From the IMG/VR virus record IMGVR_UViG_2606217117_000004: a stretch of 25,733 nt of DNA, one strand, 5' to 3'. The stretch comes from a virus. Lineage: Duplodnaviria; Heunggongvirae; Uroviricota; Caudoviricetes. Positions 1 to 8,112 of this stretch are shown here, piece by piece; within the stretch, counting starts at the first letter, position 1, and every line of letters starts with the position of its first letter. Both the position numbers and the translations under genes were made by a program. The notes under the pieces were generated by a model. That model was not told where the DNA came from and searched no databases. It saw only the letters and a list, made by a program, of their open reading frames with translations.

Positions 1-93
1 ACTCAGTTGCTGGTCTTTCTGACGGAGGGCTTCAGCCTGCTCAGAGAGCAACCTTTCCAGCTCTGCGATGCGAATGAGGTATTTCTGACTCAT
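1..93 (-). CDS. IS66-family transposase (Orf3/TnpC), N-terminal 31 codons only
   Basis: Reverse complement of 1..93 translates to MSQKYLIRIAELERLLSEQAEALRQKDQQLS, the typical IS66 transposase N-terminus; ATG at 93..91; continues past the window edge. Confidence 0.75.
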   Translation of the reverse strand, partial: MSQKYLIRIAELERLLSEQAEALRQKDQQLS

Positions 94-123
94 GACCGTT
101 TTTATAATGCGGTCAGGAGTTTT

Positions 124-474
124 TTACAACATTGTCAGTGAGTTACGGCTGGATGTTTTTGGCTGACGCCAGTCCAGCTTATCGAGGAGCATTGCCAGTT
201 GCGAGCGGGTAATGGATACCTTGCCGTCACGTACCGCAGGCCAGATAAACTGGCCTTCCTCCAGGCGTTTGGTGAACAGGCACAGACCATCAGCATCAGC
301 CCAAAGAATTTTGACGGTGTCACCCCGTCGGCCACGGAAGATAAACAGGTGACCGGAGAAGGGATTATCATTCAGCACATGTTGTACCTGTTCTCCCAGT
401 CCGTTGAAGGATTTACGCATATCGGTAACGCCGGCAACGAGCCAGATACGGGTACCTGATGGGAGTGAGATCAT
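124..474 (-). CDS. IS66-family Orf2 (IS66-type TnpB)
   Basis: 116-aa ORF MISLPSGTRIWLVAGVTDMRKSFNGL... matches the conserved IS66 orf2 product. Confidence 0.8.
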   Translation of the reverse strand: MISLPSGTRIWLVAGVTDMRKSFNGLGEQVQHVLNDNPFSGHLFIFRGRRGDTVKILWADADGLCLFTKRLEEGQFIWPAVRDGKVSITRSQLAMLLDKLDWRQPKTSSRNSLTML

Positions 475-896
475 CTTCCCCTCCCGGTCAGTTCACGGAT
501 CAACACTGTGAGCAGCTCTGGCGATGGATTTTCCAGCGTCATGTTACCGTGACGGAATTCCACCTTGCAGGAACTGGCACTGACTCTGGTCTGAGTGGAA
601 GTGGATAAAGACGGCGCAATGGCCGCCACAGGTTCTTTCTGCTCATCCGGCGTTATTTCTACAGGTAATAATTCAACGCCAGTGTCAGAAGAGGTCGTTA
701 CCGGAAGACGCCGCGAAACACGCCCTTCGTTCTGCCAGAGCCTGAGCCATTTGAAAATAACATTATCATTGACGCCATTTTCACGTGCAATCTGTGCAAC
801 ACAAGCTCCAGGTTGTGATGCCAGTTCCACCATACGAAGTTTGAATTCATTCGAATAGTTTTTACGAGGTTCTTTTCGCCAGTCCTGTAATTCCAT
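471..896 (-). CDS. IS66-family accessory protein Orf1 (TnpA-like)
   Basis: 141-aa ORF MELQDWRKEPRKNYSNEFKLRMVELASQPG... recognised as IS66 orf1; stop overlaps the orf2 start. Confidence 0.8.
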   Translation of the reverse strand: MELQDWRKEPRKNYSNEFKLRMVELASQPGACVAQIARENGVNDNVIFKWLRLWQNEGRVSRRLPVTTSSDTGVELLPVEITPDEQKEPVAAIAPSLSTSTQTRVSASSCKVEFRHGNMTLENPSPELLTVLIRELTGRGR

Positions 897-910
897 ACTT
901 AGATGTCCGT

Positions 911-2002
911 CTATATCAGATGGGCGTCTAAGTTACCAATTCTCGTCTGATGGCTACATACGGCGGTCAGTTTACGCTTACCCTCAATTGCAGATAATCT
1001 TTGTCTTAATTCTGCGTTTTCTTCTTCCAGTGCTGTTATCCTGTCGTCTGACTCTCTGGCTACCTGAACAAGCAAGCCAGTAACACCAGAATAATCTACA
1101 GTGTAATACCGTTCACCTTCTTCGCCTTCAGATCCGCTACCACCGTCCCTATATTTTATCGTAGAGCCTACGGACTCTGGAATTGCTTCTAAGGCTTCCT
1201 GTGCGATAACACCAGCGTAAGGCATCCCGTTTTCTTTAAGCGTGTATGTATAACCATTCATCTTACGGATGCGATTGGTTGCATTATCAATCACCTGAAT
1301 ATTATCTTTCAGGTCTCGGTCAGAGGTCTGGTTAAATGCGGTCGCTTGACATGCACCATTAACAGCAAATGCATATGTGTCATCTGTTTGTTTTTGACCG
1401 AAGAATATAAAAGCCCCACCATCTACACCAACTTCATAAACAACCGGACGGCTAGAATTGCCCCACAATTTAGCAGTAACGCCAGCGTGAGCGGTTCCCT
1501 GTGTGTTTAGTGTCATGGTCGAACCATGATTAGCATATTTGATCTGTAGTGTGTCTGTATAATCAAATTTAATCAGGGCATTATCTACACGATCCCCATA
1601 GGACATGAGGCATTTACCCATTTTCAAATAACCAGCAGTGCCAGGGAAAATTAAAGTTCCTCCGTAAAGATCACTAAAGTCCCAAAAGATACCTTTTGTC
1701 CCGTTATGTGTGACGATCCTCGTCATTGTATCTTTAGTACCATCAATATTTTTTCTGGTATATATATCACTATAAGCGTTTTCCGTTTCACCAGTCTTAT
1801 TTGACAAGTGAATCTTACCGCTAAATATAGTTCCAGTGGTCGGCAATGCCTTTTGATCATAGATTACATTGCAATAACTATTCCATGTTGTTTTATTGTC
1901 TACATATGATTTTGTTGCATAGCTTCCTTGATCAGTTTTTAGTTTACTAACATCGGATTTTAGCGTTTTGATGTCATCAGGAATTACTGTTTTTGTAACC
2001 AT
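911..2002 (-). CDS. Distal tail fibre protein with C-terminal intramolecular chaperone (peptidase S74-like) domain; 3' end replaced by IS66 sequence
   Basis: 363-aa ORF with GGAG ribosome-binding site 7 nt upstream. C-terminal SDRDLKDNIQVID...GYTYTLKENG...coiled coil resembles the auto-cleaving chaperone domain of tail fibres and endosialidases. The last ~24 codons (GKRKLTAVCSHQTRIGNLDAHLI) are read from the IS end. AT-rich codon usage. Confidence 0.6.
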   Translation of the reverse strand: MVTKTVIPDDIKTLKSDVSKLKTDQGSYATKSYVDNKTTWNSYCNVIYDQKALPTTGTIFSGKIHLSNKTGETENAYSDIYTRKNIDGTKDTMTRIVTHNGTKGIFWDFSDLYGGTLIFPGTAGYLKMGKCLMSYGDRVDNALIKFDYTDTLQIKYANHGSTMTLNTQGTAHAGVTAKLWGNSSRPVVYEVGVDGGAFIFFGQKQTDDTYAFAVNGACQATAFNQTSDRDLKDNIQVIDNATNRIRKMNGYTYTLKENGMPYAGVIAQEALEAIPESVGSTIKYRDGGSGSEGEEGERYYTVDYSGVTGLLVQVARESDDRITALEEENAELRQRLSAIEGKRKLTAVCSHQTRIGNLDAHLI

Positions 2003-2014
2003 TGTCTTACTCCA

Positions 2015-2284
2015 TTAAGCCCATGTCCTTACATGCTGATCTGTCGTAATGAAAGGCATTAAAGAAGATATGTTTTTACTGCCATCAACAATCCTCATGT
2101 TTACGAAAAAACCACCGCGATCAATGCCTGTACATCTTTCGTTTTCTGGCTCCTCGTAATCAATAATGCAGCCAATAACATCAACAAGAACCCCATTTTC
2201 TTCTTCAAGACTGAACAGGCCACTGTCATATACAATTGCGTTAAACTGTTCTCTGTTATCGAATCGTAATGTTATATCCCGCAT
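2015..2284 (-). CDS. Hypothetical small acidic protein (89 aa) between the two fibre genes
   Basis: ORF whose ATG overlaps the stop of the upstream fibre gene (TAATG), indicating translational coupling. AT-rich; no family recognised. Confidence 0.45.
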   Translation of the reverse strand: MRDITLRFDNREQFNAIVYDSGLFSLEEENGVLVDVIGCIIDYEEPENERCTGIDRGGFFVNMRIVDGSKNISSLMPFITTDQHVRTWA

Positions 2285-4638
2285 TATACGTATTCCTTAA
2301 GCTGCGTATCTGACAATGCTCTGTTCCAGAAACGGAGGTTTTTTATATGACCATTAAGGTGTCGTAATCCTGTCGTCGTTTGCCCCCCGATACGAATCAC
2401 GGCTGCTTCACGAATATATTTCCATACTGTTTTGGTTTCAGTGCTTATATTCTTATTTGCAAATGAGCATGTCATGCCGTCAGCCTTAACCCTGAATCCC
2501 ATAACGAGATCTCTTACTCCGCATGACTCATATACACGCCGGTTAGCCCCGCCTATATCGCAATACGAATAACCATCCTGACTGATAGTTCCAGAAGAAC
2601 CAAACCCCATAATAAATGGGCCTCCGGACTGGTGATTTTCTGAATCAATGACACGCGGTGCAGCATTATGAGAAATAAACCAGTTTTTATGGACTTCCAC
2701 CATGAACGTAAAAGGCATGGTATACATATTTTTCATCAGCGGAAATTTACATAAATCTGATGCACGAGTCGCTGGCTCTGTTGTCGTTATGATAAAGGAA
2801 GTTGCACAAGCACCATACTCGAATTGCGGGGTGGTTACTTCTATCCAGTCACCTGTTGCAAAAGCCCCCACTGCTCTGTCGGCTGCAATTTGCAGCTGCG
2901 TACCAACCATTCCCCATTCTGGCAGACATTTCAGTGTTGCCTGAAAATATATCCATCCACTACCAGGGTCGATTTCAAAGTTTGCTGTTAATAGCTGGGC
3001 ATTACCACCCGTAATTTGTAGTTCATGAGTCTGTAATGACAAATAGGCGTCACAAAGGAAAGTGTATCCTTCCGAGTTATACCGTTCAAAACGGATACGT
3101 GCGCGAACATTGAGATCACTTCTTACCCTGAACGACGCGGTAACATACGGACCTTTACTGTACTGATCATCGCCAGTCACATCTATGCCTTTATTACCAG
3201 CAACTGTGCATATATTTCTCCCTGTTGTCGTTCCTGCTATCTCACTTCCTACTGTGAAACGTCCATATTTAAACTCAAATTCATCTGTTGATGATGTTAC
3301 AGATATACCACCGCTTTTATTCCACGCATCAGGATTAAAACTATTTACGAACATGTTTGTTCGCTGATTCTCTATCAGCAAACCATATTTTTCAAAACGA
3401 GGAACGTTATTCCCTGCCACGGTAATATGCCCGGACTTATCAATATACGTTGCTGATGAAGCGCGGCTAAATTGGCATATGCCATTAACAGGCATTGTTA
3501 TTTCATCACTGCCGATGGTTATTGTTTTATAGCCCGGGGCATACCCTGTTATCGCTTCCAGAGAATCATTCAAGGGTAGCCAGATATCAGGAAGCGGAGG
3601 GACTGAAGCAGGATCAGCGGCATCTTCTGCAATCCGGGCTGCATTCTCTGCTCTTGTTGCGGCTGACGTTGCTTCTATCTCGCTGGCTGCTGCTTTTGTT
3701 TCACTCGTCTTTGCGTTAGTTTCACTGGTTTTTGCAGCTTTTTGGCTATTAGCTGCCGCACTTGCAGAACCAGCTGCGGCACTCTCGCTTTGGGCCGCTG
3801 CATCCTGACTGTTTTTTGCCGCAGTTTCGCTGGCTTTGGCATTCGTTTCGCTGGTCTTCGCTGCCGTCTGGCTGGACTTTGCGTTAGTTTCACTCGTCTT
3901 CGCAGCTTTCTGGCTGTTAGCCGCAGCAGTTGCTGATCCAGCTGCTGAAGTCGCAGAACCGGCTGCTGCGCTCTCGCTTTCAGCTGCTGCAGCCTGGCTG
4001 TTTTTTGCCGCAGTTTCACTGGCTTTAGCATTCGTTTCGCTGGTTTTCGCTGCCGTCTGGCTGGACTTTGCGTTGGTTTCGCTCGTCTTTGCTGCTGTCT
4101 CGCTGTTTTTCGCGTTGGTTTCTGATTTTTTAGCTGCTGTCGCGGAATTTGCCGATGCAGTCTGCGAGGCCGCTGCCGCCTGTGCGCTGTTAGCTGCATT
4201 CGTTTCTGAGGTTTTCGCCGCGTTCTTCGATGATGCCGCTGCAGTTTCGGATTTCTTTGCCGCCGCTGCGCTCTGAGAGGCAGCTTCAGCGTTACGTGCT
4301 GCTTCTTCCACCATAGCCTCAAAACGGCGTAATGCCTCCGGCATGACATCCTCTTCCGTCATGGCACCGAGAAAATCATTCAGCGTCCCCGGCTTAGAAT
4401 CTTCATACACGGTGATGGTCCCGGCATGTGAAGGCGGAAAACCTTCAACCAGCAGGGTGACGTTGTACTGGCCATACTCAACATCCATGCTGTAACGCCC
4501 GGCTTCATCCGGATTTTCAGAGGCCACCGTGTTCACCAGTACCGTGGTGCTGTTACGCTTTGCCTTCAGTTGAATAGTGCAGTTCTGTATTGGTTTTCCC
4601 GCACCATCTTTCAGCACACCTGAAATCTGTACTGCCAT
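2284..4638 (-). CDS. stf: Side tail fibre protein: lambda Stf-like N-terminus, Ala/Ser/Thr-rich repeat shaft, lectin-like (ConA/LamG-type) C-terminal domain
   Basis: N-terminus MAVQISGVLKDGAGKPIQNCTIQLKAKRNSTT... matches lambda Stf from memory. Likely start is the ATG at 4638 (GGAG upstream); the ORF track starts at a GTG at 4644. C-terminus ...GLRHLNGHIKNLRFWNRALSDTQLKEYV resembles Laminin_G_3 / ConA-like lectin domains. Confidence 0.8.
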   Translation of the reverse strand: MAVQISGVLKDGAGKPIQNCTIQLKAKRNSTTVLVNTVASENPDEAGRYSMDVEYGQYNVTLLVEGFPPSHAGTITVYEDSKPGTLNDFLGAMTEEDVMPEALRRFEAMVEEAARNAEAASQSAAAAKKSETAAASSKNAAKTSETNAANSAQAAAASQTASANSATAAKKSETNAKNSETAAKTSETNAKSSQTAAKTSETNAKASETAAKNSQAAAAESESAAAGSATSAAGSATAAANSQKAAKTSETNAKSSQTAAKTSETNAKASETAAKNSQDAAAQSESAAAGSASAAANSQKAAKTSETNAKTSETKAAASEIEATSAATRAENAARIAEDAADPASVPPLPDIWLPLNDSLEAITGYAPGYKTITIGSDEITMPVNGICQFSRASSATYIDKSGHITVAGNNVPRFEKYGLLIENQRTNMFVNSFNPDAWNKSGGISVTSSTDEFEFKYGRFTVGSEIAGTTTGRNICTVAGNKGIDVTGDDQYSKGPYVTASFRVRSDLNVRARIRFERYNSEGYTFLCDAYLSLQTHELQITGGNAQLLTANFEIDPGSGWIYFQATLKCLPEWGMVGTQLQIAADRAVGAFATGDWIEVTTPQFEYGACATSFIITTTEPATRASDLCKFPLMKNMYTMPFTFMVEVHKNWFISHNAAPRVIDSENHQSGGPFIMGFGSSGTISQDGYSYCDIGGANRRVYESCGVRDLVMGFRVKADGMTCSFANKNISTETKTVWKYIREAAVIRIGGQTTTGLRHLNGHIKNLRFWNRALSDTQLKEYV
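3700..4190 (-). repeat. Intragenic tandem direct repeats (~186-bp unit, about 2.5 copies) in the stf shaft
   Basis: Near-identical nucleotide blocks start near 3814 and 4002, with a partial copy near 3700. They encode repeated KTSETNAKSSQTAAKTSETNAKASETAAKNSQ...SESAAAGSA...NSQKAA units. Confidence 0.7.
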
Positions 4639-4646
4639 ACTCACTC

Positions 4647-4677
4647 CACAAATAAAAAAGGCGCCATTGCTGGCGCC
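4647..4677 (-). terminator. Intrinsic terminator between J and stf
   Basis: On the minus strand: 7-bp perfect stem GGCGCCA / TGGCGCC with GCAA loop (4660..4677), followed by TTTTTTATTT (4650..4659), directly downstream of the J stop. Confidence 0.6.
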
Positions 4678-4698
4678 CGTATTGGGGTTATAAATATT

Positions 4699-7600
4699 TC
4701 AACGGATACTGATACCGGAAGCAGCTTTTTTGGTCACAATCACCGTACAGTCTGTGATGTTACCTGCGCCCTGATTGCCTTTCTGGAAAATCTTAAACTC
4801 CAGAGTGACGTTACCACCACCACTCGGCATATCAATAACCGCACTGTAACTACCGGGAATGGCTCCTTTAGTTTCTCTGGATGCGATTAATACGCCATTT
4901 TTGCGAACTTCAAAACCATAACCCGTGTATCGCGTACCTCCCGGGTTATTACCGCTCCCCGGATCGTCATACGCCACACCGTTAAAAATAATGGGCGGAA
5001 TAATGATTTGGCGGTCAAAGTTATGATCATCGTAAATGGTGACTGTAACCGTCCCGTTTGGTGTTTCCGTGTTACCCCACGTACCAGCCTTTTTCGGGAA
5101 TGATTTGGATACAGTTTTAACGAAGTCACCTCTGACCTGGTTCGCCTCCAGCATGCCCTTAATCGTACAGTTTTCATTTACCGTGACATTATTGAGCGTC
5201 CCGGAGTTCGCATTCACGTTACCGCTGATATCAGCATTTCTCGCCGTCAGCCGCCCGTCCGGTGTCAGGGAAAATGCCGGAGGATTACCGCCACTGGTAA
5301 TGGTGGGAGCCGTCAGATACTTCAGGAACACTTCGTTCATGAATATCTGGTTGCCCTGCGCCACAAACATCGGCGTTTCATTCCCGTTTGCCGGGTCAAT
5401 AAACGCGATACGGTTAGCGGCAACCAGGAACTGGCTCAGTTTGCCTTCCTCCGTATCCTCCATGCTGAGGCCAAGCCCCGCGACATAATGTTTGCCGTCT
5501 TTGGTCTGCTCAATTTTGACGCCCCACATGGCATTCCATTTATCGTTGGCGTCCTTCCACTCTTTCGAAAACTCCTCCAGTTTGCTGGCGTTATCCTCCG
5601 TCAGCTCGACTTTTTCCAGCAGCTCCTTGCCGAGATGGGATTCGGTTATCTGGCCTTTGAAAAAATCCAGGTAACCTTCCGCATCATCGCTCGCCCGACC
5701 GACGGCCTCCACGAATGCCGATTTGCCAACGGTGTTCACACTGCGAACGTAAAAATAATAATCATGGCCCGGCTTAATATTGATACTGGCAGCTATCCAG
5801 TACAGCGCCGTGCCAAGATAGCGGGCTGTGGTTTCAACCTGCCTGATATCGGTAATCCGCTTTTCCGAGAACCAGAACTCAAACTGTACCGTCGGATCAT
5901 AAACGGCAAGATGCGGCGTGGCGGTTATCTGAAAATAGCCCGGCGTCAGCTCAATCCGAGATGGCGCTGCCGGTGCGGCAATCCGGAACGATACCGACGC
6001 CGGATCGCCCTGCTGCCCCCAGGCATTTGCCGCCCGGACTGTCAGCCTGTAGTTTCCCAGCGCCAGTTGCGTGAAGCGGTATGTGGTTTCCGTCGTCCGG
6101 GCCGTGCTGACCAGCCGCTCACTGCCGTCATCCGCTGCCACGGTCAGGCGAAGCATAAAGCTCACCCCCTTCACCACCTTCGGCGTATCCCAGCGCGCCA
6201 GCACCTGGTATTCCCCGCTGTCTGCAGTGACTTCTGCGGTCAGATGCTGCACTGCTGGCGGCGTGACACCATTCACCGTGCCGCTCTGGTCACCGTCAAA
6301 GTGCGCCCCGTTATCCACGATGGCTTCTTTCTCCGGTACATGCTGCACGGCAGTGATGGCATACGTACCGTCATCGTTCTCACGGATACTCACACAGCGG
6401 AACAGGCGCTGGCGCAGCGTCGGCAGCTTCAGCCCCCACACGCTGTACTCGGCAACGCCGTCAGGAACACGGCTCACTTTTACCTTCACGCCGTCGGTGA
6501 CGGACTGAACCTCCACGCTGACCGGACTCCCCTGCCCGTCAACCAGGCTTATCAGCGTGGTGCCGGAAGATGGCAGCGTGATTTCACGGTCGAGCGTCAG
6601 CGTCCGGGTCTGGCTGTTTACCGCCAGCACGCGCCCGCCGGTGCTGATACCGGCATAGTCATCATCGCAGATTTCAATGACATCGCCCGGTACATGGCGA
6701 AGCCCTTCGGCACCCACGCTGAAGTCCACGGTCTGCGTTTCCAGCAGTTCTGTTTTAATCAGCCACAGCCCGGCGCGATGTGCCTGCCCCCGGCTGGTAC
6801 AGCCAAAAGCATCCATCTTCGTGACGCTACGACCGTAACGGGCAATGGCCTGCGTGTCCTCCACAAGCTCTGTCGCCGTCTCCCAGCCGTTATTCGGGTC
6901 AATCCAGTTCACCTCAACGGCATTATGGCGGTCCTTCAGGGCGCTGAAGCTGTAGCGGAACGGCGCACCATCATCCGGCATCACCACATTACTGCGGTTA
7001 TAGGTCCACACCTTATCCGACGGTCGGTCCTGCACGAACGTCAGCGTCTGCCCGTTCCATACCGGCATACAGCGCATCGCCGAGCAGAAATCACTGAGCA
7101 CATCCCACGCCTTGCGCTGTGTGGTCAGGTACGCATTACAGGTGATGCGCGGCTCCGTGCCGCCAAAACCGTCCGGCACCGACTGATCGCAATGCTGGCC
7201 GATGACATACAGCGCCCATTTGTCCACATCCGCCGCACCAAGACGTTTCCCCATGCCGTAGCGCGGATGGGTCAGCATATCCCACAGACACCAGGCCATG
7301 TTGTTGCTGTATGCTGGCTTAAACGTTCCGTCCCAGATACCGCTGTATTGCCGCGTCTGCGGGTTATAGTTCGACGGCACCTGCAGAATACGCCCGCGCA
7401 GATGATAATTACGGCTCACCTGCTGGCTGCCGAACTGCTCCGAGTCCACCTGCACGCCGACCAGTGCCGTGTTCGGGTAGCACTGTTTCACATCGATGAT
7501 TTCGGTGTATGACGACCAGAGCGTTTTGTTCTGCAGCTGGTCTGTGGTGCTGTCCGGCGTCATCCTGCGCATCCGGATACTGAACGGGCGCGGCGGCAGG

Positions 7601-8112
7601 TTACCCACCACCACCGAGGCCAGATACTGCGAGGTGGTTTTGCCCTTAATGGTGATGTCTTTTTCCGTCACCCAGCCACCATTACGCTGTATCTGAACCA
7701 GCAGGCGGACTTCCGACGGATTCCTGTCCCCCTTTGAGGTGGTTTCCACCAGTGCCTGCACGCCGAAGGTAAAACGCAGTCGGTCAATGTTTGCCGACGT
7801 GATGGTCCGGGTGATCGGCGTGTCGTATTTCACTTCCGTACCCAGCACCGTCTCGGAGCCGGAGGATTCAAATCCCTCCGGCGGTGTCTGCTCCTGCTCA
7901 CCGGCCCGGAACACCACCGTGACGCCGGAGATGTTGGTATTCCCCTCACTGTCCAGCACTGGCGTACTGTTCAGCAGCACGCTTTTTAATCCATCCACCG
8001 GACCTTCAATCGGCCCTTCGCTGATGGCATCGATCACACTCAGCAACTGCGTGGACTTCAGGTTGTCCTTCGCTTCGCGCGGAGTATGCCCCTTACTGCT
8101 GCCTTTACCCAT
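4699..8112 (-). CDS. J: Central tail fibre / host specificity protein J
   Basis: 1137-aa ORF; the N-terminus and most of the length look lambda gpJ-like. The C-terminal ~145 aa appear to differ from my recollection of lambda J. Confidence 0.9.

Follow-up and report, generated by a model that had tools for sequence, protein, structure and literature searches.

Downstream of the tail-tip gene J, in a 25,733-nucleotide (nt) stretch of DNA from a virus of the Caudoviricetes, a lambda-like prophage of Escherichia coli (IMG/VR record IMGVR_UViG_2606217117_000004; the whole stretch is hereafter called the window), lie three genes encoding the side tail fibre protein Stf, a protein of 89 amino acids (aa) and a second fibre protein (fibre 2). 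All genes of the segment are on the minus strand, in the order J, stf, 89-aa open reading frame (ORF) and second fibre ORF. Our analyses of their sequences and gene order indicate that this cassette probably encodes a jointed side tail fibre of two segments, which would replace the distal half of a lambda-type Stf together with Tfa. An earlier note on this DNA, made from its letters alone, had suggested that a receptor-binding module was swapped in horizontally, possibly as a two-component or branched fibre. The swap is borne out by the recurrence of the module behind different tail anchors and by remnants of tfa beside it in related genomes, while the two-component design is supported by an AlphaFold-Multimer model of the homologous fibre in the T5-like phage Bas32 (IrisVonRoten) and by an N-terminal peptide of ~17 aa, the 'plug', that is conserved in the distal fibres of several phage groups.

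In the arrangement that we propose, a trimer of Stf would form the proximal segment, anchored by its lambda-type N-terminus, and the C-terminal module of Stf (C-module), probably together with the 89-aa protein, would form a socket that holds the distal fibre by its plug. Its lectin-like domains would project to the side and provide a second glycan-binding site, and folding of the distal fibre would be aided by an S74 chaperone at its own C-terminus, which would then cleave itself off at S227. The whole fibre would bind O-antigen or another surface glycan reversibly before J engages the terminal receptor. Socket and plug would, in addition, allow the distal fibre to be exchanged by recombination at the junction of genes 2 and 3.

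Recurrence and exchange of the cassette

The Stf C-module, the small gene and fibre 2 were found to recur behind N-termini of several kinds, namely PF08400, the T5 Ltf N-terminus, the lateral tail fibre (LTF) of Seuratvirus and the P2 H-type (PF12571/PF03406). Orthologues of all three genes, in the same order, are present in Bas32 IrisVonRoten, Bas25 VogelGryff and Tritos. A P2-like prophage (ENA ERZ1743289, L089:5001-9052) encodes a P2 H-type fibre (PF12571/PF03406 N-terminus) with the same C-module, followed downstream by genes for a 92-aa homologue of the small protein, a distal fibre of 303 aa that bears the plug (Gp34_trimer) and, as a protein of its own, a Caudo_TAP chaperone. Because this prophage carries the C-module, the small gene and a plug-bearing fibre, the joint module appears to serve myoviruses also.

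The cassette is 100% identical to that of a deposited phage genome, PhiR11_1 (PV340547), the host on record being Escherichia coli K-12 MG1655, and the other 21 kb of the window are 99.3% identical to the same genome. Positions 982-3606 are covered to at least 80% in 86 of 5,426 complete E. coli genomes, and parts of this segment were found in 733. Just downstream of the cassette in Tritos (L005:2518-2625) and in E. coli CB209 (L008:1930-2037) we detected what remains of a lambda-type tfa gene (its last 36 aa, 83-89% identical), which is absent from PhiR11_1 and the window. Because this remnant survives next to the cassette in two relatives, it shows directly that the cassette replaced something. 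Exchange also takes place within the cassette: in E. coli genomes and IMG/VR contigs the same proximal module occurs with distal fibres of 346, 227 or 234 aa and, in reverse, the same distal fibres are found on two proximal types, with the breaks in homology falling at the start of gene 3, the distal fibre gene.

The earlier note had stated that neither lom nor a Tfa-type gene lies downstream of J, and tblastn searches of the whole window (E<=1e-3) with lambda Lom, orf-314 and Tfa indeed returned no match; the sole lambda side-fibre match in the window was orf-401, the N-terminal part of Stf, at 3622-4638. The lack of lom had been counted there as part of the cassette swap, which we reject: PhiR55_1 and E. 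coli CB209 have lom between J and the same stf, and its absence from the window is therefore taken to be a separate event. The base composition described, AT-richer from about 990 to 3600, was confirmed by a check of the guanine-plus-cytosine (GC) content, which is not uniform, being 0.39-0.43 over 982-3606 compared with 0.58 in the body of J. By component, GC is 0.402 in fibre 2, 0.389 in the 89-aa gene and 0.434 in the Stf C-module (GC3, at third codon positions, 0.36) compared with 0.549 in the Stf repeats; the J body has 0.583 (GC3 0.71) and the rest of the window 0.556.

The distal fibre and its putative N-terminal plug

Fibre 2 matches phrog_4563 over residues 1-342 of 346. As had been read from the letters, it carries an S74-type chaperone, Peptidase_S74 (PF13884) aligning with aa 227-278 well above threshold (50.3 bits, cut-off 22, E 3e-13). 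The S-D-x-x-x-K cleavage motif, which is known in this role from endoNF as well, is present as SDRDLK at aa 227-232. Such a Ser...Lys motif marks the S74 cleavage site (PMC4728585). A phmmer search of fibre 2 against PDB sequences returned nothing at E<=0.01, and no tail-anchor domain could be recognised in it; only a conserved N-terminal peptide of 17 aa, the plug, precedes the shaft.

Twelve of these 17 residues are identical to Bas32 Gp24, compared with ~24% identity over the remainder of the two proteins. The motif MVTKTVIP.DI..LK is preserved, in contrast to an identity of only 24-50% in the flanking proteins. The plug reads MVTKTVIPGDITTLKGD in the 227-aa distal fibre of PhiR55_1, MATSTVIPDDIKTLKSD in Tritos, MAKTITNIPKDITNLKN in VogelGryff and MATVTTIPADITNLKKE in the P2-like prophage, and the motif was found in 64 IMG/VR loci too. 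The first residues of the distal fibre co-vary with the upstream module, MVTKT being found with the 89-aa type and MATST with the 93-aa type of small protein. These features bear on an alternative in which each of the two genes specifies a fibre of its own, with the 346-aa protein attached elsewhere on the tail tip and two kinds of side fibre on one particle. Several independent receptor-binding proteins do exist in some phages, and attachment to Stf rests on prediction; we consider independent fibres unlikely, however, in view of the missing anchor domain, the retention of the plug behind the same module across phages that differ in their tail tips and baseplates, and the co-variation of its first residues with the type of module upstream.

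The proximal fibre and its C-terminal module

The N-terminus of Stf is lambda-like, as the earlier note had proposed. PF08400 (prophage tail fibre N-terminal) matches aa 3-133 in ORF numbering (227 bits, E 6e-68), the PDB entry 9e7m ('Tail fiber protein', 94 aa) matches with an E of 2.5e-49, and aa 1-120 are ~80% identical to lambda Stf. Homology to lambda at the DNA level extends across 4289-4655 only (84% identity). The shaft that follows is built of tandem repeats with periods of 21, 42 and 189 nt across 3691-4141, including six SETNAK motifs, and matches the LtfA shaft in PDB 8hqz. Comparison with other lambdoid phages, suggested earlier as a means of mapping the recombination breakpoint, was carried out: ev207 and 2G7b are 94-96% identical to the window from ~3751 upward only and diverge below this point, which places one breakpoint inside the stf repeats.

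The C-module is ~55-60% identical to the C-termini of Bas32 Gp22 (IrisVonRoten, T5-like) and Bas25 LTF (VogelGryff, Seuratvirus), the BLASTP figures of 46% (Bas32) and 44% (Bas25) referring to alignments that include the shaft. Its 2,677 relatives stand behind several kinds of N-terminal anchor, of lambda type, T5 type, Seuratvirus and P2 H-type. The NCBIfam model NF048003, GTA_spike_fiber, matches Stf aa 423-628 (48.2 bits, cut-off 36), and a four-sequence profile matches Rcc01080, the head-spike fibre of the gene transfer agent RcGTA (PDB 6tb9_F3), over ~245 positions with an E of 1.6e-11. An AlphaFold2 (AF2) model of Stf aa 341-786 is confident only at aa ~434-610, and its core is a beta-sandwich resembling carbohydrate-binding modules (CBMs). 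Rcc01080 has been shown by direct assay to bind the capsular polysaccharide of Rhodobacter (PMC10218006). Because of the GTA_spike_fiber match, the homology to Rcc01080 and the CBM-like core, the C-module plausibly binds glycans.

The lectin-like C-terminus described in the earlier note stands in so far as GTA_spike_fiber scores above its cut-off and the core is a CBM-like beta-sandwich. The concanavalin-A-like Laminin_G_3 signature stayed below threshold, with 20.7 bits against a cut-off of 27.6, over profile positions 104-150 and in the last 48 aa of Stf only; an equally weak match is present in all four orthologues, and no confident AF2 model was obtained for that stretch. The same note had named the lack of any lectin, jelly-roll or S74 domain as speaking against its proposal, and such domains were looked for and found, the S74 domain in fibre 2 and no match to it in Stf with Pfam. 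It is very improbable that the C-module is an enzyme, that is, a polysaccharide lyase or hydrolase, in place of a lectin: it matched zero enzyme families in Pfam or NCBIfam, its sole relative of known function at the sequence level is a binding protein, and its next-best structural matches after a phage baseplate protein are non-catalytic CBMs.

A small protein that travels with the proximal fibre

Searches with the 89-aa protein returned no match in Pfam, NCBIfam or PDB, and neither a match to Tfa or Caudo_TAP (PF02413) nor similarity to any known chaperone. A word-index search with the protein alone retrieved four fragments, and the profile of a four-sequence alignment retrieved 329 relatives, all of them unnamed. 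An exhaustive profile search of 1.84 billion representatives gave 93 clusters at 50% identity, nearly all consisting of stand-alone proteins of 85-110 aa; informative fusions were sought in this search and none was found. Four long proteins (P0278, P0302, P0305 and P0328; 1,360-4,009 aa) were rejected as relatives on account of short, partial, multi-copy matches that are probably spurious, and the three of them that were scanned contain PKD repeats. Foldseek comparison of the AF2 model of the 89-aa protein with viral models returned uncharacterised small phage proteins only.

In lambdoid, T5-like, Seuratvirus and P2-like phages alike, the small gene has homologues at the corresponding place. 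In the window the stop codon of stf and the start of the 89-aa gene overlap as TAATG, in agreement with the coupling described from the letters. We surveyed 80 IMG/VR contigs encoding the Stf C-module, and in 78 of these loci the small gene and the stf stop overlap, by 1 or 4 nt; of the two loci that depart from this, one is a sequence that ends 24 nt past stf. The plug-bearing fibre gene lies 10-13 nt downstream of the small gene in 64 of the 80 loci, with an S74-type chaperone on all but two of these fibres (62/64). In E. coli genomes the small gene stays with the Stf C-module and the distal fibre is swapped separately. Judged by this pattern of inheritance, the small protein is tied to the proximal module, since it travels with it, persists without a distal fibre and coexists with a separate Tfa.

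A few of the surveyed contigs are arranged differently. L026 has no small ORF although 404 nt follow stf, and L010 and L013 have no distal-fibre ORF although >3 kb follow. L070, L074, L077 and L083 (possibly also L087) encode a 690-aa Stf with the C-module and a 92-aa protein, with a membrane-protein gene directly after and no distal fibre gene.

We propose that the 89-aa protein is an assembly or adaptor factor of the joint. It could instead be a non-structural chaperone for the Stf C-module, a functional replacement of Tfa that forms no part of the joint, with the distal fibre docking on Stf alone, and to this we give a little less than an even chance. Such a role would fit the inheritance of the small gene with the C-module and not with the distal fibre, its retention in contigs that have no distal fibre, its coexistence in the P2-like prophage with a separate Tfa serving the distal fibre, and its translational coupling to stf. 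The protein is, however, unlike Caudo_TAP or any known chaperone, and the annotators of Bas32 named its homologue 'tail fiber protein', without giving evidence; a structural adaptor role accounts for the present data equally well.

Weight of the evidence for a joint

Several points weigh against a jointed fibre. The attachment of fibre 2 to Stf is a prediction here as it is in the literature, the Bas32 arrangement being itself an AlphaFold-Multimer prediction (PMC11990801). The AF2 model of the 89-aa protein is mediocre (predicted local distance difference test, pLDDT, 66; 60 sequences; ferredoxin-like alpha/beta fold), and the flanking ~90 and ~175 residues of the C-module model, where the socket would lie, have a pLDDT <50. 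The C-module and the small gene occur without a distal fibre in at least four IMG/VR contigs, and judged by these a distal partner would not be an absolute requirement of the small protein. That the plug is conserved could in part reflect a recombination hot spot and not a binding interface. Finally, K-12 MG1655, the host recorded for PhiR11_1, is without O-antigen (PMC11990801), and because of this the side fibre is probably dispensable on that strain.

With these points taken into account, we still favour the jointed fibre as the more probable account of the three genes. More tentatively, the C-module and the ~90-aa protein (phrog_1361) might constitute a universal socket for the plug M-[AV]-T-x-T-x-IP-x-DI-x-x-LK, a portable joint of lambdoid, T5-like, Seuratvirus and P2-like phages by which any distal fibre chaperoned by S74 or Tfa could be mounted on any tail; we rate this generalization as possible, somewhat on the doubtful side of even. 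If it is true, the ~90-aa protein would represent a novel type of protein for joining or assembling fibres, a role would be assigned to a conserved protein that is labelled hypothetical in hundreds of E. coli genomes, and engineers would have a principle by which to fit distal receptor-binding parts to the tails of lambda, T5 or P2. Which O-antigen or capsule types a lambdoid phage can pass is decided by its side tail fibres, and this sets the host range both of temperate phages and of delivery particles based on lambda. The junction of proximal and distal parts appears to be a natural exchange point, at least three distal fibres having been found with the same proximal module in our survey.

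Gene coordinates and neighbouring features

The coordinates of the features are given in Table 1. The mechanical stf ORF (2284-4644, 786 aa) opens at a GTG at 4644. The real start is almost certainly the ATG at 4638 (MAVQISG...), because a GGAG lies 8 nt before it and the same start is used in lambda and in the PhiR11_1 record. The fibre 2 gene opens 12 nt past the stop of the 89-aa gene, with a GGAG in front.

Table 1. Features of the fibre cassette and its surroundings in the window
Feature	Position	Strand	Basis or remark
J, gpJ tail tip / central fibre	4699..8112	-	all Pfam J domains present; upstream boundary of the cassette, outside it
Terminator-like hairpin with a T-run behind it, within the 60-nt spacer between J and stf	4659..4678	-	consensus scan; 8-bp stem with 6 GC pairs
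stf, proximal side tail fibre gene, 784 aa from ATG 4638	2284..4638	-	phrog_1419 full-length; 100% identical to 'side tail fiber protein' of PhiR11_1
Lambda-type N-terminal anchor domain of Stf	4246..4638	-	PF08400; PDB 9e7m
Ala/Ser/Thr-rich shaft of 'KTSETNAK'-type repeats	3607..4245	-	tandem repeats; SETNAK motifs
Non-lambda C-terminal module of Stf, 440 aa (aa 347-786 of the 786-aa ORF)	2287..3606	-	similarity to Bas32 Gp22 and Bas25 LTF
CBM-like beta-sandwich, homologous to the RcGTA head-spike fibre domain	2761..3378	-	core of the C-module
Concanavalin-A-like signature (Laminin_G_3, PF13385), sub-threshold, last ~48 aa of Stf	2299..2442	-	weak score
89-aa protein gene	2015..2284	-	phrog_1361; translationally coupled to stf
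Distal fibre (fibre 2), native part, aa 1-340 of 346	982..2002	-	phrog_4563; the ORF as it stands extends to 911 inside the insertion sequence
Conserved N-terminal 'plug' peptide of the distal fibre	1952..2002	-	MVTKTVIPDDIKTLKSD; 12/17 identical to Bas32 Gp24
Peptidase_S74 intramolecular chaperone, SDRDLK motif (S227, K232), last 6 aa missing	983..1324	-	PF13884
Target-site duplication, 8 bp	982..989	.	CCTCAATT; same octamer at the other end of the insertion in strain LC-1302-2020 (L002:1441-1448)
IS66-family element (ISEc23-like), cut by the window start	1..981	-	tnpA 471-896, tnpB 124-474; terminal inverted repeat ends at 981

The terminator-like hairpin is a strong one, its 8-bp stem being followed by TTTTTTATTT; it lies after the J stop and before the ribosome-binding site of stf, where lambda has lom. 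J itself is 95-100% identical to lambda J as far as aa ~950 and ~33% identical over the last ~140 aa, and the GC content of its C-terminal region (4699-5250, ~180 codons) goes down to 0.47. The fall in identity together with the drop in GC leads us to conclude that the receptor-binding domain of J has been swapped as well; by this sequence comparison, the swap in the central fibre is independent of the side-fibre cassette.

In intact relatives the distal fibre gene is always followed by a gene for a predicted membrane protein of 95-97 aa (phrog_1443), located at L001:3651-3938 in PhiR11_1 and at L005:2645-2938, L007:1564-1857 and L008:2057-2350. This gene may be part of the cassette, as a moron or an exclusion factor.

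An IS66-family insertion in the distal fibre gene

At window position 982 the 100% identity to PhiR11_1 stops abruptly at the end of an insertion sequence (IS). Its genes match Pfam HTH_Tnp_1 (tnpA) and TnpB_IS66 (tnpB), and RefSeq names the identical locus ISEc23. On the minus strand the IS end reads GTAAGCG... at 981; such an end, like a duplication of 8 bp, is characteristic of IS66. Native fibre 2 is 346 aa long and ends in ...SAIEAALASK. The ORF in the window is 363 aa long and consists of aa 1-340 of fibre 2 followed by 23 IS-encoded aa, with loss of the last six residues (AALASK), and the C-terminal helical tail of the S74 chaperone is incomplete in this copy. The second fibre ORF of the window is, then, an IS fusion and not the native gene, which is the practical point for annotation. 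The span of 911-4644 given in the earlier note is accordingly right for the cassette genes, which are real, and wrong for 911-981, which is IS and not fibre sequence. In the lineage of the window the IS also separates the cassette from the downstream membrane-protein gene.

The insertion may impair the distal fibre of this copy. Two complete genomes, LC-1302-2020 and MMC-J-0105, have the same IS66 insertion (L002:1449-3910) and one or two further IS3-family insertions inside fibre 2, which suggests that decay of the cassette is ongoing in that lineage. RefSeq gives the stf of LC-1302-2020 (L002:6620-8974) in two pieces, one of them a pseudogene, yet it is ~100% identical to the window ORF 2284-4638; the split may stem from a small indel within the shaft repeats or be an artefact of annotation.

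These data raise the possibility that the cassette of this prophage is decaying cargo, its distal fibre inactivated by the IS and no host-recognition role left to it. Replacement of the last six residues of the chaperone domain, together with the additional IS3 elements in fibre 2 and the stf annotated in pieces in the genomes that share the insertion, would be in keeping with such decay. We nevertheless regard it as rather doubtful, considering that fibre 2 retains 340 of its 346 codons as well as the cleavage motif, that these and the two genes upstream are intact, with 100% identity to PhiR11_1, and that the remaining structural region matches that phage at 99.3%.

Comparison with known systems

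Parts of what is described here are already known: the three PHROG families, the exact DNA in GenBank and the two-segment design, which has been predicted for the T5-like orthologue. What appears to be new is the occurrence of the same joint in lambdoid, Seuratvirus and P2-like phages, the conserved plug and a ~90-aa gene bound to the proximal module; a jointed design inferred for a T5-like phage would, on this evidence, be used by lambda-like phages also.

The closest known relative is PhiR11_1 (PV340547), with DNA that is 100% identical over window 982-4800 and the same order of J, stf, 89-aa gene and 346-aa gene. In PhiR11_1 the 346-aa gene is intact and is followed by the 95-aa membrane-protein gene, whereas in the window the IS66-family element sits at codon 341. 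Both genes after stf are labelled 'hypothetical protein' in the GenBank record of PhiR11_1, and a literature search turned up no paper describing the fibres of the PhiR phages. PhiR47_1 and PhiR55_1 have the same cassette, and Tritos, HannyBb and PhiR63_1 have a sister type of ~50% identity.

Bas32 (IrisVonRoten, Tequintavirus) encodes three homologous proteins in the same order, Gp22, Gp23 and Gp24, the small protein being 33% identical to that of the window. In the published model the proximal Gp22, with a protruding galectin-like C-terminal domain, carries the distal Gp24 (Humolli et al. 2025, PMC11990801). Among the BASEL siphoviruses, Bas32 is one of the few able to infect K-12 in which the O16 O-antigen has been restored, and the 92-aa Gp23 is not discussed in the main text of that paper (PMC11990801). 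The distal fibre ends in an intramolecular chaperone in both systems. The anchor of Bas32 is of the T5 Ltf type, in contrast to the lambda PF08400 of the window, and its Gp24 is a 'T-shaped' protein of 574 aa with an extra Gp12-like domain, compared with a distal fibre of 346 aa with a single tip in the window.

The branched, L-shaped LtfA/LtfB fibres of the T5-like phages DT57C and DT571/2 are similar in that a second fibre protein is carried via the first and O-antigen is recognised (Golomidova 2016, PMC4728585; Ayala 2023, PMC10713586); the shaft repeats are alike as well (PDB 8hqz). LtfA and LtfB of DT57C both end in S74 chaperone domains (PMC4728585). We therefore rejected membership of the DT57C type for the window, in which Stf ends without an S74 domain and the two fibre genes are separated by a third; the two systems would work alike without belonging together.

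With the Stf/Tfa system of lambda (Ur-lambda) the window shares the N-terminus of ~120 aa (~80% identity), the repeat shaft and the position after J. It differs in having no orf-314-type C-terminus, Tfa or lom, and in deriving the distal part from separate genes. The core of the Stf C-module, lastly, is homologous to Rcc01080 of RcGTA (PDB 6tb9; NF048003), which is a single chain on the capsid spike, anchored by its N-terminal 10 residues, whereas in the window a tail fibre has this domain as its C-terminal portion.

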